From the NCBI RefSeq assembly GCF_016903815.1, contig NZ_CP069973.1: a DNA stretch of 64,000 nt; one strand, given 5' to 3'. A program made the translations under genes and the position numbers. The stretch comes from Escherichia coli. GTDB taxonomy: Bacteria; Pseudomonadota; Gammaproteobacteria; Enterobacterales; Enterobacteriaceae. Positions 30,022 to 56,291 of the stretch are shown one piece after another (position 1 is the first letter of the stretch; each line of letters opens with the position of its first letter). The notes beneath the pieces are model-generated. The model was not told where the DNA came from. It saw nothing but the letters and a program-made list of their open reading frames with translations, and made no database searches.

Positions 30022-31010
30022 GTACTGGCGGAAGCATCCCATATCATTTGCGGCAAAACAAAGCCATTGAAAGGAATCTATTTATAGAATCCCTAAGAAG
30101 GTTAAACAATTATACAAACATATCCGAATATGTATATATAGGATTCGGGGGGCCTTTCCTCGAAGATTTCAAACAAATTCATAATTTGTTAAAAGTGACT
30201 AAAATGATATCTATCGAAGGAGATAAAAATGTCCATTGCCGACAACAGTTTAACAAACCATTATCTTGCATAAATTTGGGTGATACCCCAGAAATGAGCG
30301 GAGACTTCATCAATCGCTATAACTTTGACGATAAAACGATCATATGGTTAGATTATGCAACGCCTTCAGACTTAAATGCTCAGTTAAATGAAATAGTTAA
30401 TTTGGTTACAAAGCTAAAACCCAAAGACATTTTTAAGATCACTTTAAATGCAAACCCTGAAGCCTTGGGAAAAAACCCGAGCGAACGAGATCCAAGAGCA
30501 TATAGATTTCAAAAGATAAACGATATTTTGACTCAAGATTTTTTACCACCGAATGCAGTAGTCGAAGATGTCGGATTTAAAAAATACCCTATGCTCCTAG
30601 TTAATGCTATGAGACGCGCAATAGGGCATGGATTAAAAGGTCGAAATGACATAAGAATACATCCATTAACTTCTTTCGTTTATAAAGATGGCCAACAGAT
30701 GGTTACTTTAACAGCTATCGTTCTTGAAAACACTGATACAGAAGAAGCTAAATTTATTGATAATTCCAGAATCAAGAATTGGCCATTTTATGATGGGAAG
30801 TGGAGTAATCCTAAAAATATAAACGTCCCTGCTATGTCTTTAAAAGAAAGGATACATATTGAATCTTTATTACCCGAAGCTTCAGTAGAAAACATCCATG
30901 AAACTCTAGGGTTTTACATTGGCTCCACTCCTTCTGGAGCCAACTCCGATCTAAGTAATTTTATCGAATACTACAAGGTCGTTCCATGGTATTCAAAGAT
31001 TCTTTTTTAA
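30018..31010 (+). CDS. Uncharacterised 330-aa protein, translationally coupled to the GHKL ATPase
   Basis: Start overlaps the GHKL stop by 4 nt; no motif recognisable by eye; AT-rich. Confidence 0.65.
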   Translation: MSTGGSIPYHLRQNKAIERNLFIESLRRLNNYTNISEYVYIGFGGPFLEDFKQIHNLLKVTKMISIEGDKNVHCRQQFNKPLSCINLGDTPEMSGDFINRYNFDDKTIIWLDYATPSDLNAQLNEIVNLVTKLKPKDIFKITLNANPEALGKNPSERDPRAYRFQKINDILTQDFLPPNAVVEDVGFKKYPMLLVNAMRRAIGHGLKGRNDIRIHPLTSFVYKDGQQMVTLTAIVLENTDTEEAKFIDNSRIKNWPFYDGKWSNPKNINVPAMSLKERIHIESLLPEASVENIHETLGFYIGSTPSGANSDLSNFIEYYKVVPWYSKILF

Positions 31011-32118
31011 CTTTTAAACAGTAATCGTATAAAGGTAATAGCATAGCCTCAGCCACAAGCGGACTAACGCTATTACCTATCTGTCTAAAACTGTGCCACT
31101 TTGTAGGATGAAAACGGAACCAATCAGGAAACCCTTGTAACCTAGCTGCTTCACGAGGAGTTATCACCCTAGCTTGAGTAGGGTGAATTGGCCTAACGGC
31201 CTGATAACTCCCCTTGTCACTTCCTGTACCTGCTCTCAAAGTTGGACAAAAACCGTTAGGATTGAGTCGTTGTGATCTCGAAATCTTATCAGTTTCACCG
31301 AATGAAAGTTGTCTATATCTCCTGAGCACTTCCTCCGAATGAGCTGTACCTAAAAAGCCAGATACCAATCCTTTCTTTAAATTTTGAATGGATTCTGCAT
31401 CACCTACACCATTTGGTATATGTCCCCAAAGTCGCTCATAATAGTAACCATCTTTATCCATTTTTACTGAACGCCAGCCTTGCTCCTCTGTCTGCCACTC
31501 TTTTCTTATAGTTCGCGGTAATCCGTAGAGTGCATCTTTGACAAGAGTCTGCTCTATTATATTTTTAGGAAAAAAATCAGATTCTTTTAACTGATTAATA
31601 AAACCTCTTTTAAAACCCATGAAAAATATTCGTGTCCGTGTCGTAGGTGCTCCATAATTTGAAGCATTAACCCTTATTGGATGTAATAAACAATAGCCAT
31701 CTCTAACTAAAGAAAATGCTTCTTCTCTTACTGGATTATATTTCTCACCCATAATTCCTGGAACATTCTCTGCCAAAAAACAAATTGGAGATAACTCACT
31801 TACCAACCTAAAAAAATGAATATACAATTCATTTCTTGTATCATTGGCATTCCTTTTTCCAATGGTGCTAAATCCTTGGCAAGGTGGACCACCAATAACG
31901 CAATCAATGTCCTTTACAGCACATGCAGACAAAATATCTTTTGCTGTAAGCGAGCAGACATCCCGATGCAAATGTGTTGATTTTGGGAAGTTTAACTCAT
32001 GTGAAAAAATAGCATGTTTATCCAGTTCAACAGCTCCAACCAAGTTGAAACCGGCTCGAGTTGCCCCTAAGCTTAAACCGCCAACTCCAGAGAATAAATC
32101 AACTACATTCATATTCAA
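30961..32118 (-). CDS. DNA (cytosine-5)-methyltransferase
   Basis: 385 aa; motif I DLFSGVGG, motif IV GGPPCQGFS, motif VI ENVPG, C-terminal QIGNSVSP; 3' end overlaps the partner gene by 50 bp convergently. Confidence 0.85.
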   Translation of the reverse strand: MNMNVVDLFSGVGGLSLGATRAGFNLVGAVELDKHAIFSHELNFPKSTHLHRDVCSLTAKDILSACAVKDIDCVIGGPPCQGFSTIGKRNANDTRNELYIHFFRLVSELSPICFLAENVPGIMGEKYNPVREEAFSLVRDGYCLLHPIRVNASNYGAPTTRTRIFFMGFKRGFINQLKESDFFPKNIIEQTLVKDALYGLPRTIRKEWQTEEQGWRSVKMDKDGYYYERLWGHIPNGVGDAESIQNLKKGLVSGFLGTAHSEEVLRRYRQLSFGETDKISRSQRLNPNGFCPTLRAGTGSDKGSYQAVRPIHPTQARVITPREAARLQGFPDWFRFHPTKWHSFRQIGNSVSPLVAEAMLLPLYDYCLKVKKESLNTMERPCSIR

Positions 32119-32394
32119 ATAACCATGCTAAAGATTCAACTAACGATCATGTATTCTATCATGACATCAGTCATTGTCTAAAGCCATAGTTGCTTTAAAA
32201 GTTGAATCAAACTAACAATCCCTTAATGTGAGAAAGTGATTTTTCGGATGATTAATAGCCACGCTCCAGCCCCCTGAAGTTCCCAATTTGCTGCTGATGG
32301 TCATTTTGAAAAACTCAAAGCAAGTGAACGACAGTTACTCTCTCCAAGCTCCGACCATCCAAACGAACAATGTAATCCTATGCAATTATATCAG

Positions 32395-34500
32395 CTAGCC
32401 ACTTATCTTCTCTTGCCGAGTAAACATTGGCAAATAATGCTTTAATGTGTTTCTAAACACTCTGACGACCTCTGGGTCACTCCATTCGATAACACCGTCA
32501 TCAACCAGATTAAGCACTGCTGCGGCGTGCTCAGAAGGTGTGGGAGCCGGTAACGAAGTATCACCACCAGTGAGCTTTCCACAGTTATTGACAGGACTCC
32601 GAGGCGCGGCGATGCCGCTTTTTAAAGTCAAAGGCTCAACGACCGGAACTTTCGGCACAATGCGCCAGTCCGTCGTTCTGGTGATATGAATATGACGCGC
32701 GCCGAGATGCGGCGCGTAAATGCCGACCACTCTCTCGACTTCTTCCTCGTACTCGTTAACGTCATCCGACGGGCTACGGGCAACCCTGACAGTCTGACAA
32801 TCGCGCGGGACATTTGCCCCACCCTGCGCGCTGATATACAACGCAAAATCACCACTGTCTGCGGCAGCGCGAGCAGCCTCGACGCGTTCGTCAAACTCAT
32901 CAGCAATACTGACGCCGCGAGGCAATTTGCGTAGTTCACGGTAAGCCCCCATTGTCGGCAGTCCAACCGTTTTAAATTGCGGGATGCGCCACGTTGACGC
33001 CCATGCAGTAACAGCCGCGGCAGTATCTTTCAGAGGTCTGCCGGTATCGTTATCGAGCTGACCATCCAGTGCATAGCCGTCGATGTTTTTTGAGATGTAT
33101 TTCGCGATATACCCCGCAGCACCGCCCCGGTTAAGGTGTTTTGCCTGAAAACGGTTTCGCGCGGCTCCTCTTTCGTCGCCATCCTCTTTGAGCGCATAGC
33201 GACGCATGATTTCGATAATCTGGTTACGCTGGCGCGGATTACAAAAAAGCATCATATGCCAGTGCGGCGTTCCGTCGTGGTGTGGCTCGACGACACGCAA
33301 ACCGTAGACCTGTAAATCATTATCCTTGAATGCCGTGCGCATCAGGCTCCAGATACGGCAGAGATAACGCTGCGCATCCTTTGGATTAAATGCCTCATCG
33401 TTCCAGCCGTGATTTAGCTGGACGGTTTTACTTTCGCCTTTTCTGACCTGACGTGTCGGGTGATACTTTGACGGCGCGGTCAGCGTGATAAACATCCCCA
33501 CATCACCCTCTGCTGCGGCGTAACGCTCAATACCGGCAATGGTGTTCATCAGCTCCATCCGGCGAATTTCAGGATTAGAAATACTGCCCATCACCTTACT
33601 GATAAGGTCGATGCGCTCGCCGGTTTCCCTGTTTTCGAGATCACACGATTTAAGAAATTCCAGATTTGCCTGGCGGCGTGCACGCACATCACGAATGGCA
33701 TGTTTACTGGCATAAGGAGAACGGTCTTTATTGACCTCCCCGACAGCAATCAGTAACGCCTCATGCCAGCGCATACGCTGGCCTTTAAGCTGATGAGTCC
33801 ACCACTCATCGTTAAACAGACGGGCAATGGCAGAATATGCCTGCCTCGTGGTCATCTGCCCTTTACGGTATTTTTTCCAGTAGAGAGGGGATATATTGAA
33901 AGCACGTGCAGCGCCAGCAACATGACCATAGAGGTGAGCCTGCGCCTCATCCGTAAACAGCGATTCTTTTTCGCCATGCGCATCCACCCAGGCATCGCTG
34001 AGTTCCTCATACATCATGAAAAGCTGCGATGAGATACGGGCAGCAAACTTTTTCAGCTCCTTGTCATTCATTCCCGGCAGGCGCGCATAGTGGTCACGCT
34101 CTGCCAGAAACAGTAACGACGCGTCGGTGTTCATTTCATGGCGCTGATTCACACGCTCAATGCGCGGCCATAAACGGCGCTGAAAAGTGGATGTGAGGAA
34201 ATAAAACCCGTGCACCGGGCTTTTATTGCGCCGGATGTAGTCATAGCGTGAAGTAAACAGCGAACGCAAAAAGTAAGGCAGGCGGTTAATCGTGGATAAA
34301 ACACCTTGCACCTGACGCATCTCGTCACGTGTAAGGGGTCTTTCGCGCCCGACAGCCTCGCGTGGCGCGCTCCATGCATAAGCACCGGTAAACGTCTTAC
34401 CGGTGCCTGCAGCAAATGCTGACGGAGGGACAAAACGCCCGGAGGCTTTAATGGCCATATGAGCCAAAAGCCTCTGAACAACGCTTGCTGAGTTGCTCAA
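32395..34500 (-). CDS. A: Replication initiation endonuclease gpA
   Basis: 701 aa in-frame ORF; position at end of early operon; true start may be upstream. Confidence 0.8.
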   Translation of the reverse strand: MSNSASVVQRLLAHMAIKASGRFVPPSAFAAGTGKTFTGAYAWSAPREAVGRERPLTRDEMRQVQGVLSTINRLPYFLRSLFTSRYDYIRRNKSPVHGFYFLTSTFQRRLWPRIERVNQRHEMNTDASLLFLAERDHYARLPGMNDKELKKFAARISSQLFMMYEELSDAWVDAHGEKESLFTDEAQAHLYGHVAGAARAFNISPLYWKKYRKGQMTTRQAYSAIARLFNDEWWTHQLKGQRMRWHEALLIAVGEVNKDRSPYASKHAIRDVRARRQANLEFLKSCDLENRETGERIDLISKVMGSISNPEIRRMELMNTIAGIERYAAAEGDVGMFITLTAPSKYHPTRQVRKGESKTVQLNHGWNDEAFNPKDAQRYLCRIWSLMRTAFKDNDLQVYGLRVVEPHHDGTPHWHMMLFCNPRQRNQIIEIMRRYALKEDGDERGAARNRFQAKHLNRGGAAGYIAKYISKNIDGYALDGQLDNDTGRPLKDTAAAVTAWASTWRIPQFKTVGLPTMGAYRELRKLPRGVSIADEFDERVEAARAAADSGDFALYISAQGGANVPRDCQTVRVARSPSDDVNEYEEEVERVVGIYAPHLGARHIHITRTTDWRIVPKVPVVEPLTLKSGIAAPRSPVNNCGKLTGGDTSLPAPTPSEHAAAVLNLVDDGVIEWSDPEVVRVFRNTLKHYLPMFTRQEKISG

Positions 34501-34723
34501 CCTGCGCGTTTAAATCAGCAAAAGACTTTGCGCTTCCGGTCAGAATATCGTGATGCATCAGGCCGGAAACGAGCTGGCTTAATTTCGGGTAATAACCAAC
34601 CACCGCCAGCCACTCCTGACCGGCGTTTTTACCGCTTTCCGCTCTCTTTTTCTCATGGAGAATAAACTGAAAGCTGTCACTGGTAACGACATAACGTTCG
34701 CCAATTTCTATACGAATGCTCAT
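34448..34723 (-). CDS. Early-operon small protein (orf83-like)
   Basis: 91 aa; position. Confidence 0.5.
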   Translation of the reverse strand: MSIRIEIGERYVVTSDSFQFILHEKKRAESGKNAGQEWLAVVGYYPKLSQLVSGLMHHDILTGSAKSFADLNAQVEQLSKRCSEAFGSYGH

Positions 34724-34944
34724 GCCATTCTCCGGTAATGTTTGTTTTTTGCTTCAAAGACTGACTGACAGGAAACACAACGCGTGGCTGACGGATAAGC
34801 CGCACGACGGGCAGCAGGTATTGGCACGTCACACTCTTCACAAACCAGCGCAGAAGCACCGCAATGTTTTACCCTTGCCGCGTTAATCTGGCGCTCCAGT
34901 AATTCAGCCTGCTGTTCCTGAATAAAATCCACGTTGTCCGGCAT
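34720..34944 (-). CDS. TraR/DksA-family C4 zinc-finger protein (orf82-like)
   Basis: 74 aa; CxxC...CxxC pattern (CEECDVPIP...RCVSCQ). Confidence 0.65.
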   Translation of the reverse strand: MPDNVDFIQEQQAELLERQINAARVKHCGASALVCEECDVPIPAARRAAYPSATRCVSCQSVFEAKNKHYRRMA

Positions 34945-35249
34945 TACCAGCTCCTTTTGTCGTTCAGCTTCTTAAATTCATCAGCGCAATAGCTGGCGAT
35001 TTCTGTCGTTAATTTCGTCAGTTCATCCACGGAGGAGATTTGCTTATGAAATACAGCGCGTTTAACAAGTAAATTGACCACATCAGACAGGAGGTTTAAT
35101 TCGTTCTGATAAATCGCGATAACAGATTCAGTTATTTCGCGTTTTTCTTTATCAAGACCAAGTTGAATAAGAGACAAATCGCCATTTTTCATAACGGCGA
35201 TTTTTAAGGCATTGTTCAGTAATACAACTGAATGAGAACAGGACATCAA
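34944..35249 (-). CDS. Early-operon small protein (orf81-like)
   Basis: 101 aa; translational coupling. Confidence 0.5.
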
Positions 35250-35503
35250 AGCACCTCCCCGCGAGACAACCCGATATTGTGAAATTTTTCCGACTCCTGA
35301 CTGAGCAGCTCGACTATCTCCACGCGGGATAACTCCGCCTTTGTGATATGGCGAATCATGGCGTCAAGATGAGAAGAAAAGCGCGTCGCTGCGTCGGCCT
35401 GTGCTTCGGTTCTGGCCTGTTGCAGCAGTAATGCGTATTTACCGCACTGATTTTCAGAAACTGTATGCATGACTTTCTCCAGGCAAAAAGAAGCCCCGCA
35501 CAA
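35246..35503 (-). CDS. Early-operon small protein (orf80-like)
   Basis: 85 aa; translational coupling. Confidence 0.5.
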
Positions 35504-35533
35504 TTAAGTGCGTTAAAAACTCTGGTTAATTAC

Positions 35534-36034
35534 TTAATGCAGATATTGCTCTGGTTTTACCGATGTCAGAATTGTCGGTGCATACTCAAACAGACTGAAT
35601 AATTCACGTAATGCACGGAATAAAGCTTCACGCCAGTAACATGATTCTTCATTAATTCGCCAGTATGGCTGGTTAAATTCTTTTTCTGTCAGTCGTGCGT
35701 GCATAAATAAAGTGCGGCGCTGACTGACAGTTAAAAAGCTAATATATGCATACTCACTTGCACCGACCTGACGGCGTTTTGAGAATGCCCCACGCAATTC
35801 ATCAATTGCACAAACCAGCCGTTCACGTTCGACGTCGTTCATTTCTTCAAAACGCATCGTTGCGTGACGTTGTTTTAACTGCGCATGAAAGCAAACTGTT
35901 AGCCGTTCGCGCTCCATCATCTGATTATAATAATCACATGTCTCCTGCCAGCGAGGAACGGCAAGATGCTTACCAATTATCCGGCGCATAGTTGCTGGCT
36001 GTTTTTCAACGAGATTGAGCGTCATCACTGTCAT
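35534..36034 (-). CDS. B: Replication protein gpB
   Basis: 166 aa, matching P2 B length and position. Confidence 0.65.
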   Translation of the reverse strand: MTVMTLNLVEKQPATMRRIIGKHLAVPRWQETCDYYNQMMERERLTVCFHAQLKQRHATMRFEEMNDVERERLVCAIDELRGAFSKRRQVGASEYAYISFLTVSQRRTLFMHARLTEKEFNQPYWRINEESCYWREALFRALRELFSLFEYAPTILTSVKPEQYLH

Positions 36035-36225
36035 TTCCAGCCCCTCCGGCTTTTCAGAAAGGTCAGAGCCTTCTTTAACGGACTCTGTTTTTTGGTGCGG
36101 ATAATGATTCCCTTGCGTCCCTTCCCGTGGGTGATGGTGAAGTCAATCGCCCTGGGGCTTTCGTTACGCAATAACTGAGCAATACAACGAGGCTCATTCA
36201 TACGGTTCTCCTTAACGTGGTTCAC
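36031..36225 (-). CDS. Early-operon small protein (orf78-like)
   Basis: 64 aa between cox and B. Confidence 0.45.
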   Translation of the reverse strand: MNHVKENRMNEPRCIAQLLRNESPRAIDFTITHGKGRKGIIIRTKKQSPLKKALTFLKSRRGWK

Positions 36226-36487
36226 CGAGACCTAACCACATCAACCAGCCGTCACGAATCTCTTTAGGACGGCTTTCATAAGCCAGTTTTAGTCCGTTAT
36301 TCCATGCCGGAATGTATACCCAATATTCACCAGCACGCCCCGATACTGACTGAGGGTCAGTAATCTCAATAACTGGTAATTTCCCTTTCTCAATCATGCC
36401 CCTTACAGCTCTTGGAGTTTTACCAATGAGTTTTGCAAACTCCTGATAAGGCACGGCATCAGTCACGCTTACAAGCTGTCTATTCAT
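36212..36487 (-). CDS. cox: Cox (excisionase / Pc repressor)
   Basis: 91 aa, first gene of early operon, divergent from C. Confidence 0.75.
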   Translation of the reverse strand: MNRQLVSVTDAVPYQEFAKLIGKTPRAVRGMIEKGKLPVIEITDPQSVSGRAGEYWVYIPAWNNGLKLAYESRPKEIRDGWLMWLGLGEPR

Positions 36488-36608
36488 CTGCTACGATTCT
36501 CCCTTAGTGCTTCTAATGGCTCCTAATGGCTAATTATTGCCTAAAAGGATAACTCCAGAAGCACAACATTTCACACCATCAGCAAGAAATTACGCAATCG
36601 GAGTAATT

Positions 36609-36908
36609 ATGTCAATAGACGTTTCGGAGAAGTTGAAGCTAATCCGTGAATCTGAAAGGTTAAACCGTAAAGAATTCAGTGAATTAACTGGTGTAGCCTA
36701 CAGCTCACTTTCGAGCTATGAGAGCCGGTCAAAAAACGCTGGAGTTGAAGCCATAATGAAGGTCTTACAACATCCCAGATTTACTAAATATACTTTGTGG
36801 TTCATGACTGATCAGGTAGCTCCAGAAGCCGGGCAAATTGCGCCCGCTCTCGCACACTTTGGGCAAAACGAAACAACGTCGCCCCACTCCGGTCAAAAGA
36901 CTGGTTAA
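36609..36908 (+). CDS. C: Immunity repressor C
   Basis: About 99 aa from MSIDVSEKLKL; helix-turn-helix-like N-terminus; upstream of int. Confidence 0.7.
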   Translation: MSIDVSEKLKLIRESERLNRKEFSELTGVAYSSLSSYESRSKNAGVEAIMKVLQHPRFTKYTLWFMTDQVAPEAGQIAPALAHFGQNETTSPHSGQKTG

Positions 36909-37023
36909 CAATTTATCGTGAATATATTCATCACAAGTGCCTACTATTGGTGGCTAAATTTCAGCCACCACGAAAAAAGCGATTAGTAGTAGCAAAAAAA
37001 AGTACCACTCGGAGGGTTTTCTG

Positions 37024-38037
37024 ATGGCAATCAAAAAACTCGATGATGGTCGATATGAAGTGGACATTCGCCCTACTGGACGTAACGGAAAACGCATCCG
37101 TAGGAAGTTTGATAAGAAAAGCGAAGCTGTCGCTTTCGAAAAATACACGTTGTACAACCACCACAATAAAGAATGGCTATCAAAACCAACAGACAAACGA
37201 CGTCTGTCGGAACTGACACAGATCTGGTGGGATTTAAAGGGTAAACACGAAGAGCATGGGAAATCTAATCTTGGAAAAATTGAAATCTTCACAAAAATAA
37301 CGAATGACCCATGCGCATTTCAAATCACGAAATCCCTTATCAGCCAGTACTGCGCCACCCGAAGAAGTCAGGGTATTAAACCTTCGAGTATCAATCGTGA
37401 TTTAACATGTATTAGCGGCATGTTTACAGCCCTGATTGAAGCGGAGTTATTCTTTGGTGAGCACCCTATCAGAGGGACAAAGAGGCTTAAGGAGGAAAAA
37501 CCAGAAACAGGCTATCTCACACAGGAAGAAATTGCCTTACTGCTTGCAGCACTTGACGGCGACAATAAAAAGATTGCGATTCTTTGCCTGAGTACAGGAG
37601 CACGTTGGGGAGAAGCAGCTCGTTTGAAAGCAGAAAATATCATCCATAACCGCGTCACGTTTGTTAAAACGAAAACAAACAAACCACGCACCGTCCCGAT
37701 CTCAGAGGCTGTTGCCAAAATGATCGCGGATAACAAACGAGGTTTTTTATTCCCTGATGCTGATTACCCTCGCTTCAGACGAACAATGAAAGCAATAAAA
37801 CCGGATTTGCCAACGGGGCAAGCCACACATGCACTAAGGCACAGCTTTGCCACTCATTTCATGATTAATGGAGGAAGTATTATCACGCTACAACGGATAC
37901 TAGGTCACACGCGGATTGAGCAAACTATGGTTTACGCTCATTTTGCGCCAGAGTACCTTCAGGACGCCATTTCTCTTAATCCGCTAAGAGGTGGTACTGA
38001 AGCCGAGAGTGTCCACACAGTGTCCACAGTAGAGTAA
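37024..38037 (+). CDS. int: Tyrosine integrase
   Basis: 337 aa; C-terminal catalytic motifs (HALRHSFATHF ... LGHTRIEQTMVYAH). Confidence 0.9.
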   Translation: MAIKKLDDGRYEVDIRPTGRNGKRIRRKFDKKSEAVAFEKYTLYNHHNKEWLSKPTDKRRLSELTQIWWDLKGKHEEHGKSNLGKIEIFTKITNDPCAFQITKSLISQYCATRRSQGIKPSSINRDLTCISGMFTALIEAELFFGEHPIRGTKRLKEEKPETGYLTQEEIALLLAALDGDNKKIAILCLSTGARWGEAARLKAENIIHNRVTFVKTKTNKPRTVPISEAVAKMIADNKRGFLFPDADYPRFRRTMKAIKPDLPTGQATHALRHSFATHFMINGGSIITLQRILGHTRIEQTMVYAHFAPEYLQDAISLNPLRGGTEAESVHTVSTVE

Positions 38038-38116
38038 CGTTTAAGGGCTTTCAGTGGTAATTTATGCCGCTCAAACCCGCATTGTACCGTTGAAAGCCCC
38101 TACTGGTGACACCCTA

Positions 38117-38143
38117 AATCTCCCTTACACGGGCTTATTTTTT
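38117..38143. repeat. Prophage attachment-site core, right copy
   Basis: Identical 27 bp to 4926..4952. Confidence 0.8.
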
Positions 38144-38313
38144 GTGCATAAACCATAGAGACGGATTGATCCCAGGTGACCGTCTTCCATTGACCACATC
38201 GATAGAATCTCCCTTCATAGCACGATGCCTTTCACGTAACGGCATCGTGCTCGCACAGGTTCCGGCTAAGCACAACCAGAACGCGCATGTTTGACGCTTA
38301 CCAAAAAATATTC

Positions 38314-38631
38314 TCACTCTCCACATTTGAATGTCAGACGAGCGACGCCATGTAATCCTGCACCTTCTGTCTTCAGGTCAACTATCTGCATTTTTTTGCC
38401 CTGAGTAACACAGAAATGAGCTGCATCATTTTTTACTATATTTTCTGCACCAGATATTCTGCCCCTGGCTAAAGAAGCTTCGGCTTCGGTGTAGTATTGG
38501 TTATCGAGTTTACGCTGAATATTACTTTTATATGCAAGACCAAATTTACCGATACTTGTCTCATCATTATGTACAGCACACCCAGACATAAGAAAAACAC
38601 TAATTAATGATATAGCAGCTATCTTTTTCAT
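38314..38631 (-). CDS. yegR: Lipoprotein YegR
   Basis: MKKIAAISLISVFLMSGC lipobox signal; synteny. Confidence 0.75.
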   Translation of the reverse strand: MKKIAAISLISVFLMSGCAVHNDETSIGKFGLAYKSNIQRKLDNQYYTEAEASLARGRISGAENIVKNDAAHFCVTQGKKMQIVDLKTEGAGLHGVARLTFKCGE

Positions 38632-39045
38632 CTTACCTTCCCCCATTAAATACCAACGACACGCTCTGGTGTTAAAATATAATAATGGCATGATTATTAT
38701 AATTGAATAGGATTATAATAAATGTTCTGTACAACATTTCCTACATAAGTAGGAATTACAAACATGAAGCCCTGCCCAGGTATCCCCATGAGGGCTTTAA
38801 TATATTTAGAATAAGATAGTGAAGATGCCACTGTTTAGTTGAATATTAGGTATATGCTCTTTTTTGAAATTTACCGGTGGCTACCGTTAACATTCACTGT
38901 CCCCATTGCAAGCTCCTGGTGGTAACCACTGAATCCTCCATACTTGAACTGATTTTTTATCCTCCGACTTTCATCCTGTTCTGACTCCACCTTTTCTTTT
39001 CTGCTCTACACTATCTACAGACCAATCATAAAGGCACATACGATC

Positions 39046-39945
39046 ATGGCAGAATTTCCCGCCAGCTTACTGATTCTTAATGGCAAAAGTACTGACAATT
39101 TACCATTGCGCGAAGCAATTATGCTGTTGCGTGAGGAAGGAATGACGATCCATGTGCGGGTCACCTGGGAGAAAGGCGATGCCGCACGATATGTAGAGGA
39201 GGCCCGGAAGTTGGGCGTCGCAACGGTGATTGCCGGTGGTGGCGATGGCACCATTAATGAAGTTTCTACGGCGTTGATTCAGTGTGAGGGGGATGACATA
39301 CCCGCGCTAGGAATTTTGCCATTAGGAACCGCCAATGATTTTGCCACCAGTGTAAGGATTCCTGAGGCACTGGATAAGGCGCTGAAACTGGCAATTGCCG
39401 GTGACGCCATTGCGATAGATATGGCGCAGGTCAACAAACAAACCTGTTTTATTAATATGGCGACAGGCGGATTTGGGACGCGTATTACCACAGAAACGCC
39501 GGAAAAATTAAAAGCCGCGCTGGGTGGCGTCTCTTACATCATTCATGGCTTAATGCGCATGGATACTCTGCAACCGGACCGTTGTGAGATCCGCGGTGAA
39601 AACTTTCACTGGCAAGGTGACGCCCTGGTCATTGGTATTGGTAACGGGCGTCAGGCCGGTGGCGGTCAGCAATTGTGCCCGAACGCGTTAATTAACGATG
39701 GCTTGCTGCAACTGCGCATTTTTACCGGCGATGAAATTCTTCCGGCTCTCGTATCAACATTAAAATCTGACGAAGATAACCCGAATATTATCGAAGGCGC
39801 TTCGTCGTGGTTTGATATACAAGCCCCACACGAAATCACTTTTAATCTTGATGGCGAACCGTTGAGCGGACAAAACTTTCATATTGAAATACTTCCGGCG
39901 GCGTTGCGTTGTCGATTACCACCAGATTGCCCATTGTTGCGTTAA
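39046..39945 (+). CDS. yegS: Lipid kinase YegS
   Basis: 299 aa; diacylglycerol-kinase catalytic motif GGDGT. Confidence 0.9.
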
Positions 39946-39982
39946 TCACACTATTCTCTCTTGAACCAGGGAGAATCCGTAA

Positions 39983-40016
39983 TGCCGGATGCGGTGTAAA
40001 AACTTTATCCGGCATA
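39983..40016. repeat. REP (repetitive extragenic palindromic) element
   Basis: gccggatgcggtgtaaaaactttatccggc imperfect palindrome. Confidence 0.5.
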
Positions 40017-40026
40017 CAGAGCAATA

Positions 40027-40806
40027 CTACACCGTAATTAATTTCACCCGTGTCTTCTGCAATGCCAGTTTATCCACCTCTGACACGGCATCATCGGTAA
40101 TAATAATGTCAATTTTTTCGATTGGCAGTACCTGATTAAAACCGCGACGATTAAATTTCGATGAATCGAGAACGGCAATCACTTTATTTGCGGCTGTAAC
40201 CATCGCCCCGCTAATCGAATAACCTTCATTAAAGGTCGTAATACCATTAACCGCATCAATACCATCAGCACCGACAAACATTAAATCGGCATTAATATCC
40301 TGCAATGAACGCTCGGCAATGGAACCATGCATCGAGCGTGTTTTATGGCGGACGGTCCCACCACAGACGACCAGAGTAATGTCTTTATTTTCGGAAAGGG
40401 CAAATGCTGCCGGGAGACTGTTGGTAATCACCGTGATATTTTTGGCGGTCATTAATCCTTCGGCGATAAGCATTGTCGTACTTCCGCTGTCGAGAATAAC
40501 GGTCATCCCTTCGTGGATCATTTTGACTGCCGCCTGCGCTATTCTGTTTTTTGGCGCGCTGGCGAGCTGAAATCGCTCTTTAAACCCAACTTCCTGGGTC
40601 TCGGTTTCACTATTACCGGACATTATTTTCGCCGCACCGCCATGAAAGCGCGTAACCACGCCTTTTTGTTCGAGAAAGCGCAAATCGGCACGGATTGTCG
40701 CTTCCGAGGCAGCAAATACTCCCGCCAGATCCTGAACAAGCACGGTTCCCTGTTCATTCACTAATTGGATGATCTTATTCCTTCGCTCGAATGAATTCAT
40801 CGTCAT
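40027..40806 (-). CDS. gatR: DeoR-family galactitol operon repressor GatR (intact)
   Basis: 259 aa uninterrupted; HTH N-terminus and DeoR sugar-binding domain. Confidence 0.85.
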   Translation of the reverse strand: MTMNSFERRNKIIQLVNEQGTVLVQDLAGVFAASEATIRADLRFLEQKGVVTRFHGGAAKIMSGNSETETQEVGFKERFQLASAPKNRIAQAAVKMIHEGMTVILDSGSTTMLIAEGLMTAKNITVITNSLPAAFALSENKDITLVVCGGTVRHKTRSMHGSIAERSLQDINADLMFVGADGIDAVNGITTFNEGYSISGAMVTAANKVIAVLDSSKFNRRGFNQVLPIEKIDIIITDDAVSEVDKLALQKTRVKLITV

Positions 40807-40905
40807 TTACCCATATTCAATTGTGGCTAGTGTAAACGAAGGGGGACCATTGGTGAATGATCTGTTTTGCACAATACCGGGCCAGCATCACGCTGGCCCG
40901 CGGTT

Positions 40906-41946
40906 TCAGGGAATGAGCAACACTTTGCCCGGCATAGCATTACGAGCGATGTCACGCACCGCCTGGGCGAAGCTTTCAAAGCTTCCACGGTGAGCGATTA
41001 ATGGCTCCAGGCTTAACTTACGTTCTGTCAGCAACCGGCTCGCCGTTTCCCACTCCTGCCCCGGCCAAGGGCTGGAGTAGTTCATCCAGCTGCCGATAAC
41101 CGTCAGCTCTTTACGTAATATTTTGCCAAACGTTGTCGATGTTAAATGCAGATCCTGATGCAACGTGCCCACCAGCGCCAGCTGGGCATGAGGCCCGGCA
41201 ATCTCTACCGCCAGTTCGACGGTTTTCGGGACACCAGCCGTCTCGAGGATAAGCTGATTAAAGCGCAGCTCGCGTAAAACGCCCTGCATTTGCGGCGCGC
41301 TCATTTCAAGGCTGTTAAATGTTAGCATCGCCCCGAAAGATTTTGCCAGAGCCAGTTTTTCTGAGCTAATGTCGATAGCCGTCACACTCTTTGCTCCCAG
41401 CGCGACAGCGCACTGAATTGCCAGCAGGCCAATGGTTCCGGCACCAATAATAATAACGTTTTTATTCTCACAACCTTGCGCTAAATGAAAAGCATGCAGG
41501 CCAACGGTAATCGGCTCAATAAAAGCCCCATCCTCAATAGACATATCCGTGGGTAGAGCAAAGACATTTTTTCGCTTAACGACAATATATTCAGCAAATC
41601 CACCATCACGCCGCGAGCCAATAAAATCATATTTTGCGCACTGGGAATAAAACCCTTTCAAACACTCTGGACAAGTAAAACAGGGTAATAACGGCACACA
41701 GGCAACCGCATCGCCAGGGTGTAAATCATCAACACCGGATCCCACCGCATCAATATAGCCGCTAAATTCATGGCCTAACGTTATTGGATAATAATGTGCA
41801 CCATTTTTAAATATCCTGGGTAAATCGGAACCACATAAGCCCGAGCTGGCAATTTTTACCCGCACCTGATCCTGATGTTTAATTTCAGGAATGACGCTTT
41901 CTGCAATGCGCACGATACCATCAGTATCATTCACCACTGATTTCAT
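40906..41946 (-). CDS. gatD: Galactitol-1-phosphate 5-dehydrogenase
   Basis: 346 aa; Zn-dependent alcohol dehydrogenase fold (GHEFSG, GAGTIG). Confidence 0.9.
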   Translation of the reverse strand: MKSVVNDTDGIVRIAESVIPEIKHQDQVRVKIASSGLCGSDLPRIFKNGAHYYPITLGHEFSGYIDAVGSGVDDLHPGDAVACVPLLPCFTCPECLKGFYSQCAKYDFIGSRRDGGFAEYIVVKRKNVFALPTDMSIEDGAFIEPITVGLHAFHLAQGCENKNVIIIGAGTIGLLAIQCAVALGAKSVTAIDISSEKLALAKSFGAMLTFNSLEMSAPQMQGVLRELRFNQLILETAGVPKTVELAVEIAGPHAQLALVGTLHQDLHLTSTTFGKILRKELTVIGSWMNYSSPWPGQEWETASRLLTERKLSLEPLIAHRGSFESFAQAVRDIARNAMPGKVLLIP

Positions 41947-41993
41947 AAAAACTCCTGATTGTTAAGGGGGATTACCTCCCCCTCAGGTAAAAA

Positions 41994-43349
41994 TTATTCT
42001 GCGAGAACGGCTTTCTCTTGTTTAATAAAACCACGCGCTCTACGCCAGGTCATGAAAATACCGGTCAGATAAATTGCGCCGATAATAATGAAACCGGGAA
42101 TATTTTGCGGGGAGAAAACCTGAATCAGTAACCAGGTAATGGGAGAACCGCCCTGATCCATTGAAGCCACCATACCTCCGGCTTTTAACGCCCCAGCATT
42201 GGCCGCCAGTTGGGTGTGCAAACCAATAGTTTGCGTCGCGATCCACAGGGTGATGCTCATAATGATGACACCCGAGATTAAGGTGCGGAACAGATTTCCA
42301 CGATGCACGGCGACCGCCATCGCCACGAAGAAGCCGATAGTTGCAAGATCGCCAAACGGCAGCACCTGATTACCCGGCACACAAACAGCAATTAAAATGG
42401 TGAGTGGAATAAAAATCAGGCTTGCCGATACCACCGCCGTATGCCCCAGCAGCAACGCCGGATCAAGGCCAATCAGGAACTCCTGACCGCCGAACTTCGC
42501 CTGTAAACGACTACGGGCCTGCTTAGCGATGGGCGTTAAACCATCCATGATGGGTTTAATCACCCGTGGCATCAGCAGCATAACTGCCGCCGTTTTTACC
42601 GCCAGCTGCAATACACCTTTGACATCGTAACCCGCGAGGATGCCGATAATTAGCCCCATCACAAAACCCACGGTGACAGGCTCGCCAAATGGGCCAAATT
42701 TGCGCTGAATATCGTCGGCGCTAAATTTAATACGGTTAACGCCTGGGATTTTCTCGATGATAGCATCCACCAGCACCGCAATTGGCCCCAGATACGCCGA
42801 CGTACCGTGCGGAATGGCAATGCCTTCCAGCTCAAAGAAATTTCGGGTATCGCGGGCAAACCAGTCGCCGAGCTTATAAACAAACGCCGCGTGAATTACC
42901 ACACCCGCCATCCCTATCATCCATGAACCGGTTGCCAGATGCAGCAATGCGCCGGTGAAGGTCATATGCCAGATATTCCAGATATCAACATTTACCACCC
43001 GCGTCATACGGGTCAGTAGCATCGCCACGTTAACCAGAATCGCAATCGGAATCGCCACCAGCGCAATTTGCGACGCCCAGGTCATTGGTGAAGAGCCCGG
43101 CCAACCGACATCGACCACATGCAGATTCAGGTCGAAATTTTCCGCCATCGCTTTCGCCGCCGGGCCAATGGAATCCAGCATTAAGCCAATCACAAGGCCA
43201 ATGCCAACAAAGCCAATCCCGATATGCAGACCCGCTTTAAAGCAATCGCCTGCCTTCATGCCTAATATTTTAGAAAAAATAATGATGACAATCGGCAGCA
43301 TCACCGTAGGGCCGAGGTCGAGAATATAACGCATGACTTCTGAAAACAT
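41994..43349 (-). CDS. gatC: PTS galactitol-specific EIIC
   Basis: 451 aa polytopic membrane protein. Confidence 0.9.
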   Translation of the reverse strand: MFSEVMRYILDLGPTVMLPIVIIIFSKILGMKAGDCFKAGLHIGIGFVGIGLVIGLMLDSIGPAAKAMAENFDLNLHVVDVGWPGSSPMTWASQIALVAIPIAILVNVAMLLTRMTRVVNVDIWNIWHMTFTGALLHLATGSWMIGMAGVVIHAAFVYKLGDWFARDTRNFFELEGIAIPHGTSAYLGPIAVLVDAIIEKIPGVNRIKFSADDIQRKFGPFGEPVTVGFVMGLIIGILAGYDVKGVLQLAVKTAAVMLLMPRVIKPIMDGLTPIAKQARSRLQAKFGGQEFLIGLDPALLLGHTAVVSASLIFIPLTILIAVCVPGNQVLPFGDLATIGFFVAMAVAVHRGNLFRTLISGVIIMSITLWIATQTIGLHTQLAANAGALKAGGMVASMDQGGSPITWLLIQVFSPQNIPGFIIIGAIYLTGIFMTWRRARGFIKQEKAVLAE

Positions 43350-43352
43350 AGG

Positions 43353-43637
43353 TCACCCCTGTAAGATAGTCAGAATTTTATTTTGTAATGCTTCGATACC
43401 GACACCAGAAACAAAAGGCATGCCGTGAACTAACGGAATATCGCCAAAACTACGGTCAACTTTGGCGGTAGTACATATCAAATGCACGCCATCCATATAG
43501 GTTTCTATTTCATTAACCCGACACTGGATTAATTCAACAGGAATATTATGACTCTGACACAACTCTTTAATTTCTTCCGCCGCCATCGTGGAGGTCGCAA
43601 CCGCGCCTCCGCAAGCGACAATAATCTTGCGTTTCAT
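43353..43637 (-). CDS. gatB: PTS galactitol-specific EIIB
   Basis: 94 aa; [16 protein letters not shown]. Confidence 0.9.
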
Positions 43638-43667
43638 AAATAGTCCTTTTTATTGTTACAGAGGGAT

Positions 43668-44120
43668 TTATTCGTCTGAATCTAAAACATACTTTGTGAA
43701 GTATTCCTTTAACTGGGTTTCAGGAAGAGTGATTAGTGTCTCGACGATCTCGGGCTGTTGTAACTTGCCAAATAAACAGCGTAAAAGTTTCAATTGCTGC
43801 TGCGGATTTTCCACAATTAACGCAATAACCAACGATACCGCCACGTCGTTATCATCATCCGCTTGCTGAAAATGAACTTTATTTGTTGGCCTTAACAGAT
43901 AAATGGCTGACGACTTAGCATGAATCGCCTCACAATGCGGTATTGCAATGGCGTGCTGCTCAAGCATTATCCCGGTAGGGAATTCTGCTTCTCTGGCAAT
44001 TAATGCCTGTGGCCAGGTATCATGAACCACACCTTTCGCGAGCATCTCATTACCGATATGGGTTAAAACTTCGCTACGATCGACAAAAGAAATTCCGCTA
44101 CGAACAAACAGGTTAGTCAT
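43668..44120 (-). CDS. gatA: PTS galactitol-specific EIIA
   Basis: 150 aa; position. Confidence 0.9.
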   Translation of the reverse strand: MTNLFVRSGISFVDRSEVLTHIGNEMLAKGVVHDTWPQALIAREAEFPTGIMLEQHAIAIPHCEAIHAKSSAIYLLRPTNKVHFQQADDDNDVAVSLVIALIVENPQQQLKLLRCLFGKLQQPEIVETLITLPETQLKEYFTKYVLDSDE

Positions 44121-44129
44121 ATACCGTCC

Positions 44130-46324
<2,195 letters not shown>

Positions 46325-46436
46325 TTAAATGTCGAGATAACGATCACAAAAACGACAATATGAAAATTGTTCGAGGAGTGAAAGGCAAAAAAACGGCCTC
46401 CCGATAGGGAAGCCGTAGCAAAGTGCGCGTTATTTT

Positions 46437-46472
46437 ATGCCGGATGCAGTGTAAACGCCTTATCCGTCATAC
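46437..46472. repeat. REP element
   Basis: atgccggatgcagtgtaaacgccttatccgtcatac, REP-like. Confidence 0.45.
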
Positions 46473-46499
46473 GTGGCAGTGCTGGTCGTACAAAGCACA

Positions 46500-47552
46500 T
46501 CAGGCGATAGTAATTTTGCTATCGAGATAAACGTCCTGCACGGCGTTAATCAGTTTCACGCCGTCAGCCATCGATTTCTTGAACGCCTTACGTCCAAGAA
46601 TCAGCCCCATTCCGCCAGCGCGTTTGTTGATGACCGCAGTACGCACTGCATCGCTGAGGTCAGTTTCACCGCCTGCAGCACCGCCGGAGTTTATCAACCC
46701 TGCCCGGCCCATATAGCAGTTAGCTAACTGATAACGCACCAGATCAATCGGGTTTTCGCTGGTTAACTTGCTGTACACGCGATCGTCGGTATAACCGTAA
46801 TTAATCGCTTTATAGCCGCCGTTATTTTCCGCCATTTTTTGTTTAACGATATCTGCACCTATGGTCGCCGCCAGATGGTTTGCCTGACCGGTCAGGTCGG
46901 CGGAAACATGGTAATCAACGCCATCTTTCTTAAAGGCGGAGTTACGCAAATAGGCCCACAGCACTGTCACCATGCCCAGCTCGTGCGCACGTTCAAAAGC
47001 CGCAGAAATTTCTTCAATCTGGCGACGTGACTCTTCCGAACCAAAATAGATAGTCGCACCAACCGCCACCGCGCCCATGTTGAAGGCCTGCTCCACGCTG
47101 GCATACAGCGTTTGATCGTAGGTATTCGGGTAACTTAGCGTCTCGTTGTGATTAAGTTTGACGAGGAATGGAATGCGATGCGCGTAACGCCGCGATACCG
47201 ATGCCAGCACACCGTAAGTTGACGCCACACAGTTACAGCCCGCTTCGATCGCCAGTTCAACAATGTTTTTCGGGTCAAAGTAGAGCGGGTTAGCGGCAAA
47301 TGAAGCTCCGGCAGAGTGCTCAACGCCCTGGTCAACCGGCAGAATAGAAAGATATCCTGTGCCAGCCAGACGCCCAGTGTTGTACAACGTCTGCATATTA
47401 CGTAACACCGCTGGCGGGCGATTATTGTCAATCATCACGCGGTCTACGTAGTCATGCCCGGGGAGATAAAGCTGGTCAGAAGGAATAGTCATACAACGGT
47501 GCTGTAAAAGGTTGTCGGCGTCTTTGCCAAGCAACTGCGCAATATCTGTCAT
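46500..47552 (-). CDS. fbaB: Fructose-bisphosphate aldolase class I
   Basis: Start at [16 protein letters not shown]; DeoC/LacD-type aldolase. Confidence 0.85.
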
Positions 47553-47808
47553 TACTATGCTCCCGTAAATTCCGATTGGATATCGGCTATGGATTGTCCT
47601 GGCCCGCCTTTTGCGGGCAATCATAATCCTGGTCGTTACAGGCGAGTTTTTCCATCTTTTGGATGTTTTTTCAGCGTTTTCTGTTGGCTCGATTCATCAG
47701 AAAAAATGTTACCGCGGTCAAGTTTTCACCGCAAAGGTATTTAAAAGGTATTATTAAATGGTATTGTCATCGCGTACCTTACATTACCTGTCATGAAGGA
47801 ATTAAAAG

Positions 47809-49086
47809 ATGAAAACAACAGCAAAGCTGTCGTTCATGATGTTTGTTGAATGGTTTATCTGGGGCGCGTGGTTTGTGCCATTGTGGTTGTGGTTAAGTAA
47901 AAGCGGTTTTAGTGCCGGAGAAATTGGCTGGTCGTATGCCTGTACCGCCATTGCGGCGATCCTGTCGCCAATTCTGGTTGGCTCCATCACTGACCGCTTT
48001 TTCTCGGCGCAGAAAGTGCTGGCGGTATTGATGTTCGCTGGTGCGGCGCTGATGTATTTCGCTGCGCAACAGACCACTTTTGCCGGGTTCTTCCCGTTAC
48101 TGCTGGCCTACTCGCTAACCTATATGCCGACCATTGCGCTGACTAACAGTATCGCTTTTGCCAACGTGCCGGATGTGGAGCGTGATTTCCCACGCATTCG
48201 TGTGATGGGCACTATCGGCTGGATTGCCTCCGGTCTGGCATGTGGATTTTTGCCGCAAATGCTGGGTTATGCCGATATCTCTCCGACTAACATCCCGCTA
48301 CTGATTACCGCCGGAAGTTCTGCTCTGCTCGGTGTGTTTGCGTTTTTCCTGCCCGACACGCCGCCAAAAAGCACCGGCAAAATGGACATTAAAGTCATGC
48401 TCGGCCTGGATGCGCTGATCCTGCTGCGCGATAAAAACTTCCTCGTCTTTTTCTTCTGTTCATTCCTGTTTGCGATGCCACTGGCGTTCTATTACATCTT
48501 TGCCAACGGTTATCTGACAGAAGTCGGCATGAAAAACGCCACCGGCTGGATGACGCTCGGCCAGTTCTCTGAAATCTTCTTTATGCTGGCATTGCCGTTT
48601 TTTACCAAACGCTTTGGTATCAAAAAGGTATTATTACTTGGTCTGGTCACCGCTGCGATCCGCTATGGCTTCTTTATTTACGGTAGTGCGGATGAATATT
48701 TCACCTACGCGTTACTGTTCCTCGGCATTTTGCTGCATGGAGTAAGTTACGATTTTTACTACGTTACCGCTTACATCTATGTCGATAAAAAAGCCCCCGT
48801 GCATATGCGTACCGCTGCGCAGGGGCTGATCACGCTCTGCTGCCAGGGCTTCGGCAGTTTGCTCGGCTATCGTCTTGGCGGTGTGATGATGGAAAAGATG
48901 TTCGCTTATCAGGAACCGGTAAACGGACTGACTTTCAACTGGTCCGGGATGTGGACTTTCGGCGCGGTGATGATTGCCATTATCGCCGTGCTGTTCATGA
49001 TTTTTTTCCGCGAATCCGACAACGAAATTACGGCTATCAAGGTCGATGATCGCGATATTGCGTTGACACAAGGGGAAGTTAAATGA
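47809..49086 (+). CDS. yegT: MFS nucleoside transporter YegT
   Basis: 425 aa, 12-TM pattern. Confidence 0.85.
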   Translation: MKTTAKLSFMMFVEWFIWGAWFVPLWLWLSKSGFSAGEIGWSYACTAIAAILSPILVGSITDRFFSAQKVLAVLMFAGAALMYFAAQQTTFAGFFPLLLAYSLTYMPTIALTNSIAFANVPDVERDFPRIRVMGTIGWIASGLACGFLPQMLGYADISPTNIPLLITAGSSALLGVFAFFLPDTPPKSTGKMDIKVMLGLDALILLRDKNFLVFFFCSFLFAMPLAFYYIFANGYLTEVGMKNATGWMTLGQFSEIFFMLALPFFTKRFGIKKVLLLGLVTAAIRYGFFIYGSADEYFTYALLFLGILLHGVSYDFYYVTAYIYVDKKAPVHMRTAAQGLITLCCQGFGSLLGYRLGGVMMEKMFAYQEPVNGLTFNWSGMWTFGAVMIAIIAVLFMIFFRESDNEITAIKVDDRDIALTQGEVK

Positions 49087-50087
49087 AAACAGAACGTATT
49101 CTCGGTGCTCTTTATGGGCAGGCGTTAGGGGATGCGATGGGGATGCCCTCCGAGCTTTGGCCACGCAGCCGCGTTAAAGCACACTTTGGCTGGATTGACC
49201 GTTTTCTGCCTGGACCAAAGGAGAATAACGCGGCCTGTTATTTTAACCGCGCCGAATTCACCGACGATACCTCGATGGCGCTGTGTCTGGCGGATGCGTT
49301 ACTGGAACGTAAAGGCAAGATCGATCCGGATCTGATTGGGCGTAATATTCTCGACTGGGCGCTGCGTTTCGACGCCTTTAACAAAAACGTACTAGGTCCG
49401 ACCTCGAAGATTGCTCTCAACGCCATTCGCGACGGTAAACCCGTTGCTGAACTGGAAAACAACGGCGTGACCAACGGCGCAGCGATGCGCGTCTCGCCAT
49501 TAGGTTGTTTGCTTCCGGCGCGTGATGTTGATTCCTTTATTGATGATGTGGCGCTGGCGTCCAGCCCGACCCATAAATCCGATCTGGCGGTTGCAGGTGC
49601 GGTAGTCATCGCATGGGCGATTTCCCGTGCCATTGACGGAGAAAGCTGGTCAGCGATTGTTGATTCACTACCCTCGATTGCGCGACATGCACAGCAAAAA
49701 CGCATCACCACCTTCAGCGCCTCACTGGCGGCGCGCCTGGAGATTGCGCTGAAAATTGTGCGCAATGCCGACGGCACTGAATCCGCCAGCGAACAGCTTT
49801 ACCAGGTCGTTGGCGCAGGTACCAGCACTATTGAGTCCGTTCCGTGCGCCATTGCGCTGGTTGAACTGGCACAAACCGACCCGAACCGTTGCGCCGTCCT
49901 CTGCGCTAACCTTGGCGGCGATACAGACACCATCGGTGCTATGGCGACGGCAATCTGCGGCGCGTTGCATGGCATTAACGCTATCGATCCTGCGTTAAAG
50001 GTGGAGCTGGATGCGGTAAATCAGCTTGATTTCAACCGCTATGCCACAGCGCTGGCGAAATATCGTCAACAACGGGAGGCGGTATGA
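49083..50087 (+). CDS. yegU: ADP-ribosylglycohydrolase family protein YegU
   Basis: 334 aa; coupled to yegT. Confidence 0.85.
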   Translation: MKTERILGALYGQALGDAMGMPSELWPRSRVKAHFGWIDRFLPGPKENNAACYFNRAEFTDDTSMALCLADALLERKGKIDPDLIGRNILDWALRFDAFNKNVLGPTSKIALNAIRDGKPVAELENNGVTNGAAMRVSPLGCLLPARDVDSFIDDVALASSPTHKSDLAVAGAVVIAWAISRAIDGESWSAIVDSLPSIARHAQQKRITTFSASLAARLEIALKIVRNADGTESASEQLYQVVGAGTSTIESVPCAIALVELAQTDPNRCAVLCANLGGDTDTIGAMATAICGALHGINAIDPALKVELDAVNQLDFNRYATALAKYRQQREAV

Positions 50088-51049
50088 GCGGCGCTCGATT
50101 ACACACGCTGCTGCCTGAATTAACCACGCGTCAGTCGGTGATGGTCGTCGGCGCGGCGGTCATTGACGTGATCGCCGACGCTTATGCCCTCCCCTGGCGT
50201 GGGTGCGATATCGAACTGAAACAGCAGAGCGTTAACGTTGGCGGCTGCGCACTGAATATTGCCGTGGCGTTAAAGCGCCTCGGCATCGAAGCGGGTAACG
50301 CCTTGCCGCTCGGTCAGGGCGTGTGGGCGGAGATTATTCGCAACCGGATGGCAAAAGAGGGCTTAATCAGCCTGATCGATAACGCCGAAGGTGATAACGG
50401 CTGGTGTCTGGCGCTGGTTGAGCCGGATGGCGAACGCACTTTTATGTCATTCAGCGGTGTGGAAAATCAGTGGAATCGCCAGTGGCTGGCGCGATTAACC
50501 GTTGCGCCTGGCAGCCTGCTCTATTTTTCCGGTTATCAACTGGCCTCGCCCTGCGGCGAATTATTAGTGGAATGGCTGGAAAAGCTGCAAGACGTGACGC
50601 CGTTTATCGATTTTGGCCCACGTATTGGCGATATCCCGGATGCATTGCTGGCGCGGATCATGGCCTGTCGACCTTTAGTGTCACTCAATCGTCAGGAGGC
50701 TGAGATTGCCGCCGAACGTTTTGCTTTATCCGCAGAGATAACAACACTTGGCAAGCAATGGCAGGAGAAATTTGCCGCGCCGTTGATCATTCGTCTCGAT
50801 AAAGAGGGCGCATGGTATTTCAGCAACGACGCTTCTGGCTGCATTCCGGCATTTCCAACGCAAGTAGTAGACACCATTGGGGCGGGCGACAGTCATGCAG
50901 GTGGCGTACTTGCCGGGCTAGCCTCTGGTCTGCCACTGGCGGATGCCGTATTACTGGGCAATGCAGTGGCGTCGTGGGTTGTCGGGCATCGGGGCGGTGA
51001 TTGTGCGCCAACGCGCGAGGAACTACTCCTCGCACACAAAAACGTATAG
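50084..51049 (+). CDS. yegV: PfkB-family sugar kinase YegV
   Basis: 321 aa; GAGD motif near C-terminus. Confidence 0.85.
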   Translation: MSGARLHTLLPELTTRQSVMVVGAAVIDVIADAYALPWRGCDIELKQQSVNVGGCALNIAVALKRLGIEAGNALPLGQGVWAEIIRNRMAKEGLISLIDNAEGDNGWCLALVEPDGERTFMSFSGVENQWNRQWLARLTVAPGSLLYFSGYQLASPCGELLVEWLEKLQDVTPFIDFGPRIGDIPDALLARIMACRPLVSLNRQEAEIAAERFALSAEITTLGKQWQEKFAAPLIIRLDKEGAWYFSNDASGCIPAFPTQVVDTIGAGDSHAGGVLAGLASGLPLADAVLLGNAVASWVVGHRGGDCAPTREELLLAHKNV

Positions 51050-51769: not shown

Positions 51770-51820
51770 TTGTCTTTTTCCTGCCAGGGAGTCTGGTGGG
51801 AGTATATCACTGCTTCTTAT

Positions 51821-52648: not shown

Positions 52649-52703
52649 CCCTGAATGTCAGTGCCAAAGGCTGACAATAACCAAAGCAGCTATAGTACGG
52701 TGC

Positions 52704-54289: not shown

Positions 54290-54300
54290 AGTTTGCTCCT

Positions 54301-54415
54301 GCCATAACGTGAAGAAGCAATGACCTGGTGGTCCGTGACTTCCCTACGCTGGCATTATCCAGATCAGGTGATACGGGTATTTCTCAGCCTTCACGCAGAA
54401 GGGCACCCCGAGTCG
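54301..54415 (-). promoter_or_regulatory. TPP (thi-box) riboswitch in the thiM leader
   Basis: Minus strand reads ...ggctgagaaatacccgtatcacctgatctggataatgccagcgtagggaa... containing the CUGAGA and ACCUGAUCUGGAUAAUGCCAGCG thi-box elements. Confidence 0.85.
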
Positions 54416-56286: not shown

Positions 56287-56291
56287 AAAAA

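Follow-up and report, generated by a model that had tools for sequence, protein, structure and literature searches.

In Escherichia coli K-12, expression of the galactitol (gat) operon is constitutive owing to an insertion sequence in gatR (PMC5850726; PMC9189660; bioRxiv 10.64898/2026.01.05.697630). The MG1655 annotation gives gatR (b4498) as two fragments around an IS3E element of 1258 bp that carries insE5 and insF5, so that both the interruption and its effect on expression, which a first-pass annotation of the DNA described here had put forward for K-12, are confirmed. Sousa et al. (2017) exchanged the pseudogene of K-12 for the gatR of E. coli HS, carried on a PCR fragment reaching from yegS to gatD, and thereby obtained a regulated gat operon (PMC5850726). 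Galactitol use is polymorphic among natural isolates (PMC5850726), and in mice strong selection acts on this trait in gut E. coli, where it also influences how they compete with Salmonella (PMC3945185, PMC5850726; also Eberl et al. 2021, cited in PMC11445065). In the mouse gut, silencing of gatR gave a strong benefit in LF82 and CFT073 and none in MG1655, because of IS3E (2026 preprint, bioRxiv 10.64898/2026.01.05.697630). AgaR and SrlR (GutR), which are likewise DeoR-family repressors of E. coli sugar operons, share the two-domain architecture of GatR.

We analyzed a 64,000-nucleotide stretch of E. coli DNA (here called the window) that contains a gat locus. Our main reading, to which we assign a probability of about 0.9, is that the region starting at position 40027 is wild-type gatR, encoding a DeoR/GlpR-family repressor of the gatYZABCD operon that lies immediately upstream on the same strand. 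The features of the locus are as follows.

40027..40800, minus strand: gatR coding sequence according to RefSeq, 774 nt, 257 aa, WP_001295426.1, starting at the third codon of the open reading frame
40502..40504, minus strand: GAC triplet, the IS3E target in K-12, single copy and uninterrupted in the window
40807..40905, minus strand: gatD-gatR intergenic region, presumed gatR promoter (by inference), identical to K-12
40906..41946, minus strand: gatD, galactitol-1-phosphate 5-dehydrogenase, full length, 346 aa (open reading frame and annotation of strain 7/2)
41994..43349, minus strand: gatC, PTS galactitol IIC, full length, 451 aa
43353..43637, minus strand: gatB, PTS galactitol IIB, 94 aa
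43668..44120, minus strand: gatA, PTS galactitol IIA, 150 aa
44130..45387, minus strand: gatZ pseudogene, 1258 nt instead of 1263
45416..46270, minus strand: gatY, tagatose-bisphosphate aldolase catalytic subunit, full length, 284 aa as annotated
46270..46366, minus strand: gatY promoter region with candidate GatR operators (promoter scan and repeat search)

According to the open reading frame list and its translation, 40027..40806 (minus strand) is one continuous frame of 780 nt, corresponding to 259 codons and a stop, whose product begins MTMNSFERRNKIIQ. The first-pass annotation had claimed a continuous 259-codon gene and had named an IS element or a premature stop within 40027..40806 as the finding that would speak against it; re-inspection and alignment to the MG1655 fragments revealed neither in this interval. 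The claim stands, with 259 codons being the maximal open reading frame, extended by two codons up to the ATG at 40806, and 257 aa the size of the annotated protein. The shorter start is annotated by RefSeq/PGAP in M217, 7/2, HS, and O55:H7 DEC5B, and the two MG1655 b4498 fragments (299 and 475 nt) add up to 774 nt, the same length as the RefSeq gatR. A Shine-Dalgarno-like element, GGGT, is located 8 nt before the ATG at 40800 and 2 nt before the upstream ATG, and we prefer the 257-aa start because of this better spacing; the gatR product is thus most likely a protein of 257 aa.

Residues 8 to 60 of GatR match the helix-turn-helix family HTH_DeoR (Pfam PF08220; E 1.3e-16, 60.5 bits, cut-off 21), and residues 85 to 238 match DeoRC (PF00455; E 2.5e-51, 174.2 bits, cut-off 31.8). 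GatR therefore combines the two hallmarks of the DeoR/GlpR family, an N-terminal helix-turn-helix and a C-terminal DeoRC sugar-phosphate sensor and oligomerisation domain, in line with the generic PGAP name for the gene, "DeoR/GlpR family DNA-binding transcription regulator." The top NCBIfam matches were AgaR (232.9 bits, cut-off 260) and SrlR (226.3 bits, cut-off 350). As both scores lie below the curated equivalog cut-offs, GatR is a paralogue and not an orthologue of AgaR or SrlR, and, unlike the genes for these two repressors, it sits in a gat and not in an aga or srl operon context. The open reading frame map and the annotations of 7/2, MG1655, HS, and M217 place gatR at the far end of the gatYZABCD cluster, flanked by gatD and yegS, and the gene order yegS / gatR-gatD-gatC-gatB-gatA-gatZ-gatY / fbaB is the same in MG1655, HS, and M217. 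At the nucleotide level, gatR of the window is 100% identical to the intact annotated coding sequences of M217 and 7/2. Chance is not at issue, since identity and synteny both identify the gene as a known one.

The alignment with the K-12 gatR region, suggested in the first-pass annotation as a check, runs from end to end and is uninterrupted at the IS3E site. In K-12, IS3E follows GAC at codon ~101, and alignment with the window showed that both MG1655 fragments abut GAC, which represents a 3-bp target duplication; the K-12 gatR/IS3E junction is not carried by the window. Removing IS3E and one GAC from the MG1655 fragments restores the 780-nt frame, and this reconstituted K-12 gatR differs from that of the window at 16 nucleotides, all of them synonymous, leaving the amino acid sequences identical. 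The K-12 pseudogene (gatR::IS3E) is thus the same gene as the one described here, with the same upstream region. A further difference between the two loci concerns gatC, which is a pseudogene in MG1655 and intact in the window.

We then determined how common an intact gatR is by searching 5426 complete E. coli genomes with a 1101-nt query spanning the gene (window 39900..41000). The query matched 5109 of the 5426 genomes, 4756 of them with at least 80% in one place, and coverage of the query indicated a split or partial gatR in 353, these counts showing large disruptions while being blind to point frameshifts. A 70-nt query for the K-12 gatR/IS3E junction was covered to at least 80% in 346 genomes, so that only about 7 of the 353 would carry another large disruption of gatR. 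Among the matches listed, carriers of the IS3E junction included ER1709, EC2648-R1 (source: conjugation assay), and TUM24568 (recorded as laboratory developed). An uninterrupted gatR is the wild type of E. coli, with K-12 as the exception, and the finding is ordinary and already known. Its own significance is minor: it documents how a well-known repressor gene normally looks and confirms an origin outside K-12.

In contrast to gatR, gatZ is disrupted. Alignment with M217 and MG1655 showed that one TGCTT unit is gone from the tract TGCTG-TGCTT-TGCTT-TGCTG (in fuller context, GCTGCTG-TGCTT-TGCTT-TGCTGCGG), the deletion junction lying between 44948 and 44949, in the segment 44930..44965. The frameshift splits gatZ into open reading frames of 159 and 278 codons, and RefSeq flags the identical gatZ of strain 7/2 as "frameshifted," in agreement with the first-pass annotation, which had called the gene frameshifted; the lesion is a 5-bp deletion. 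We surveyed the alleles of this tract with a 60-nt junction query, which matched 3832 records, 262 at 99% identity or more and 3527 at 90 to 95%. Sampled records of the latter band align at 92.3%, corresponding to the two-copy wild type. The 262 records comprise the -5 allele, seen as single-piece matches, and a +5 allele with three TGCTT units, seen as two-piece matches spanning 70 nt; the +5 allele accounts for at least 60 records. An asymmetric 68-nt query was used for -5 versus +5, ungapped alignments sliding in the repeat and non-carriers aligning over 87%, and it identified at least 98 genomes as exact carriers of the window-type -5 allele.

The -5 allele occurs on at least three gatZ backgrounds (window type, O55:H7 DEC5B, and cattle strain 149), which differ from one another by 12 to 22 substitutions in 965 aligned columns. 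For the +5 allele there are at least three to four backgrounds (K-12 RV308, 2014C-3011/SMN013SH2, DA33133/1283, and ST540), and the gatZ of RV308, a laboratory derivative of K-12, is, apart from the +5, identical to that of MG1655. The presence of both alleles on several backgrounds marks the tract as a recurrent slippage site. The gat locus of K-12 is a measured mutational hotspot, at 1e-5 per generation (PMC5094792), and no paper describing the gatZ TGCTT repeat was found in the literature searched. gatR is annotated as intact in DEC5B and 2014C-3011, the two frameshift strains checked. We tentatively propose, as a possibility that we hold to be less probable than its opposite, that the tract acts as a recurrent and perhaps reversible ±5-bp switch, creating a heritable on/off polymorphism of galactitol use in which intact GatR silences the broken operon. 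If so, a silent broken operon would be cheap to carry under GatR, and the window would represent the "off" state, with one TGCTT unit. The repeat polymorphism of gatZ, and not gatR, is the feature of interest in this locus and deserves an evaluation of its own.

The remainder of the operon showed further variation among strains. Over the 1101-nt gatR region (39900..41000), M217 and the window show 100% identity, yet they differ at 38 of ~1260 gatZ positions, a contrast suggestive of a recombination breakpoint within the gat operon. In some relatives in which both gatR and gatZ are identical to those of the window, the distance between these genes is ~15.9 kb rather than 4.2 kb, which implies that ~11.7 kb has been inserted within the operon (NZ_CP033884.1, NZ_CP027134.1, NZ_CP021202.1, and NZ_CP086334.1), and four other relatives carry IS1 in gatZ (NZ_CP173463.1 and three others). 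Several +5 strains bear lesions in addition to the frameshift, namely, IS1 truncating gatZ, IS1 between gatC and gatD, or a gatA pseudogene.

Such lesions, together with the gatZ pseudogene itself, would be expected if gatR were intact merely for lack of time and the whole gat locus were a relic decaying without selection: relatives with a near-identical gatZ bear either IS1 in that gene (four genomes) or the additional ~11.7 kb separating gatR from gatZ, and the +5 strains have accumulated IS1 insertions and the gatA pseudogene. We nevertheless consider this scenario unlikely, since GatR, GatY, GatA, GatB, GatC, and GatD are all full length in the window and GatR shows no amino acid change relative to phylogroup-distant strains. 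Moreover, only 98 of the 148 genomes with a gatZ at least 99% identical match the 68-nt junction exactly, so that the frameshift appears recent. Decay of this kind would in any case bear on future selection and not on the present function of gatR, which we continue to read as the wild-type repressor gene.

The consequence of the frameshift for galactitol use is less certain. Insertions in gatZ make K-12 gat-negative (PMC3945185); the published mutant is an IS insertion, which may have had a polar effect, and a 5-bp frameshift could result in a partial phenotype. The operon might therefore still be usable, either because GatY is active enough without GatZ or because KbaZ, which we take to be the GatZ paralogue of the N-acetylgalactosamine system, substitutes for it. 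Speaking for this, the annotation makes GatZ a non-catalytic aldolase subunit or a chaperone, GatY as the catalytic subunit is intact, and the sole gat-negative gatZ mutant that we found is the IS insertion, perhaps polar on gatABCD. However, RefSeq calls gatZ a frameshifted pseudogene, there is no kbaZ within the window, and the ~780 nt of gatZ left untranslated past the premature stop could, by polarity, reduce the expression of gatABCD, making a usable operon improbable in our view. The most likely state of this strain, as predicted from its sequence, is thus that of a repressible and inducible operon unable to complete galactitol catabolism. The operon would be off without galactitol, unlike in K-12, and galactitol would remain unused because gatZ is frameshifted and not because of regulation. 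We regard this Gat-negative prediction as less certain than the regulatory one, since GatZ is a non-catalytic subunit of the aldolase and the published mutant is possibly polar. As galactitol use matters in the gut, it is of some ecological relevance whether regulation or catabolism is the part that has failed in a widespread clinical lineage.

The regulatory prediction draws on the conservation of GatR. The GatR of the window is the same RefSeq protein as that of E. coli HS (WP_001295426.1), encoded at the same position (yegS-gatD) in an operon of the same order, with the difference that the gatZ of HS does not have the frameshift. The gatR genes of HS, DEC5B, and the window differ from each other at 11 to 16 nucleotides and at no amino acid, indicating purifying selection. 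By sequence identity and location, gatR of the window is the orthologue of the characterized E. coli GatR. The expectation of the first-pass annotation that the operon is repressible was upheld as a good inference, GatR being the HS allele that restored regulation in K-12, the 100 nt upstream of gatR being those of MG1655 (alignment columns 1 to 100), and the gatY promoter region differing from that of K-12 at only two positions; the gat operon of this strain is probably repressible. It is very improbable that the open reading frame is intact while the repressor is unexpressed or non-functional, leading to K-12-like constitutive expression by another route, since the protein has the sequence of an allele whose function has been validated, its upstream region equals that of K-12, and the HS yegS-gatD fragment, comprising gatR and the flanking intergenic regions, sufficed to restore regulation (PMC5850726).

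We then looked for sites through which the repressor could act. A promoter scan identified a promoter-like element, TCGACA-18-CATTAT, at 46335..46306. This element and the gatY start are enclosed by two inverted boxes of 21 nt, one at 46346..46366 (TTTTCATATTGTCGTTTTTGT) and the other, its inverted copy, at 46270..46290, and a palindrome, ATTTCA...TGAAAT, at 46296..46315 overlies the -10 element. Judged by their symmetry, these repeats are candidate GatR operators. Several spaced operators permitting looping are typical of DeoR-family repressors. From the fbaB terminator to gatY (~130 nt), the window differs from MG1655 at two positions, one adjoining a candidate operator box and one inside the -35-like hexamer, and M217 shares both. 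A comparison of the regions upstream of gatY and gatR for a common motif gave only trivial 9-mers with one mismatch and nothing convincing. In the fbaB-gatY intergenic region (window 46440..46500), MG1655 has ~78 extra bases, REP-like by eye, that are absent from both the window and M217.

Taken together, these features would fit a model in which, without galactitol, GatR occupies operators around the gatY promoter by means of its N-terminal helix-turn-helix and silences the operon. Galactitol would be imported and phosphorylated by the GatABC phosphotransferase system, and a pathway intermediate would then bind the C-terminal DeoRC sensor, leading to release of the repressor. DeoR, GlpR, UlaR, and LacR respond to phosphorylated sugars, and by analogy the inducer of GatR is probably galactitol-1-phosphate or tagatose-6-phosphate. 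In the strain studied here, the regulatory half of this system would be intact and the catabolic half broken by the 5-bp frameshift in gatZ.

Looking at the wider window, positions 27812..57420 are identical to E. coli 7/2 (NZ_CP023820.1, human feces, Sweden), which bears out the statement of the first-pass annotation that the source is not a standard K-12 derivative. Many matches at 100% identity are clinical isolates, presumably of the ST410 type. We rejected the view that the window represents strain 7/2 throughout, as the match is exact only over 27812..57420 and the prophage part upstream of 27812 is 99.0 to 99.5% identical, with one non-homologous segment. The prophage is P2-like, occupies ~5050..38040 between yegQ and yegR, and carries ogrK, tail, baseplate, lysis, capsid, terminase, portal, and cox genes and an integrase gene at 37024..38037. 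It is missing from the yegQ-yegR site in M217 and HS, and the stretch of the MG1655 annotation that was inspected reads yegR-yegS and contains no integrase.

The prophage contains two cargo blocks. The first, at 17736..19028, is a variable site lying between baseplate gene V and a virion-morphogenesis gene and is not homologous to 7/2; it holds a 389-aa open reading frame (17762..18931, plus strand) with a hydrophobic C-terminal part, which gave no Pfam or PADLOC match and is a candidate for an uncharacterised moron or defence gene. The second, at ~28597..32112, adjoins a truncated replication endonuclease gene and encodes, on the matching sequence of 7/2, an ATP-binding protein, an O-methyltransferase, and a DNA cytosine methyltransferase. 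Two RNA elements expected at their positions were also detected with Rfam, the small RNA CyaR/RyeE at 4864..4949 (plus strand; 100.7 bits) downstream of yegQ and a TPP riboswitch at 54324..54420 (minus strand; 71.8 bits) upstream of thiM.
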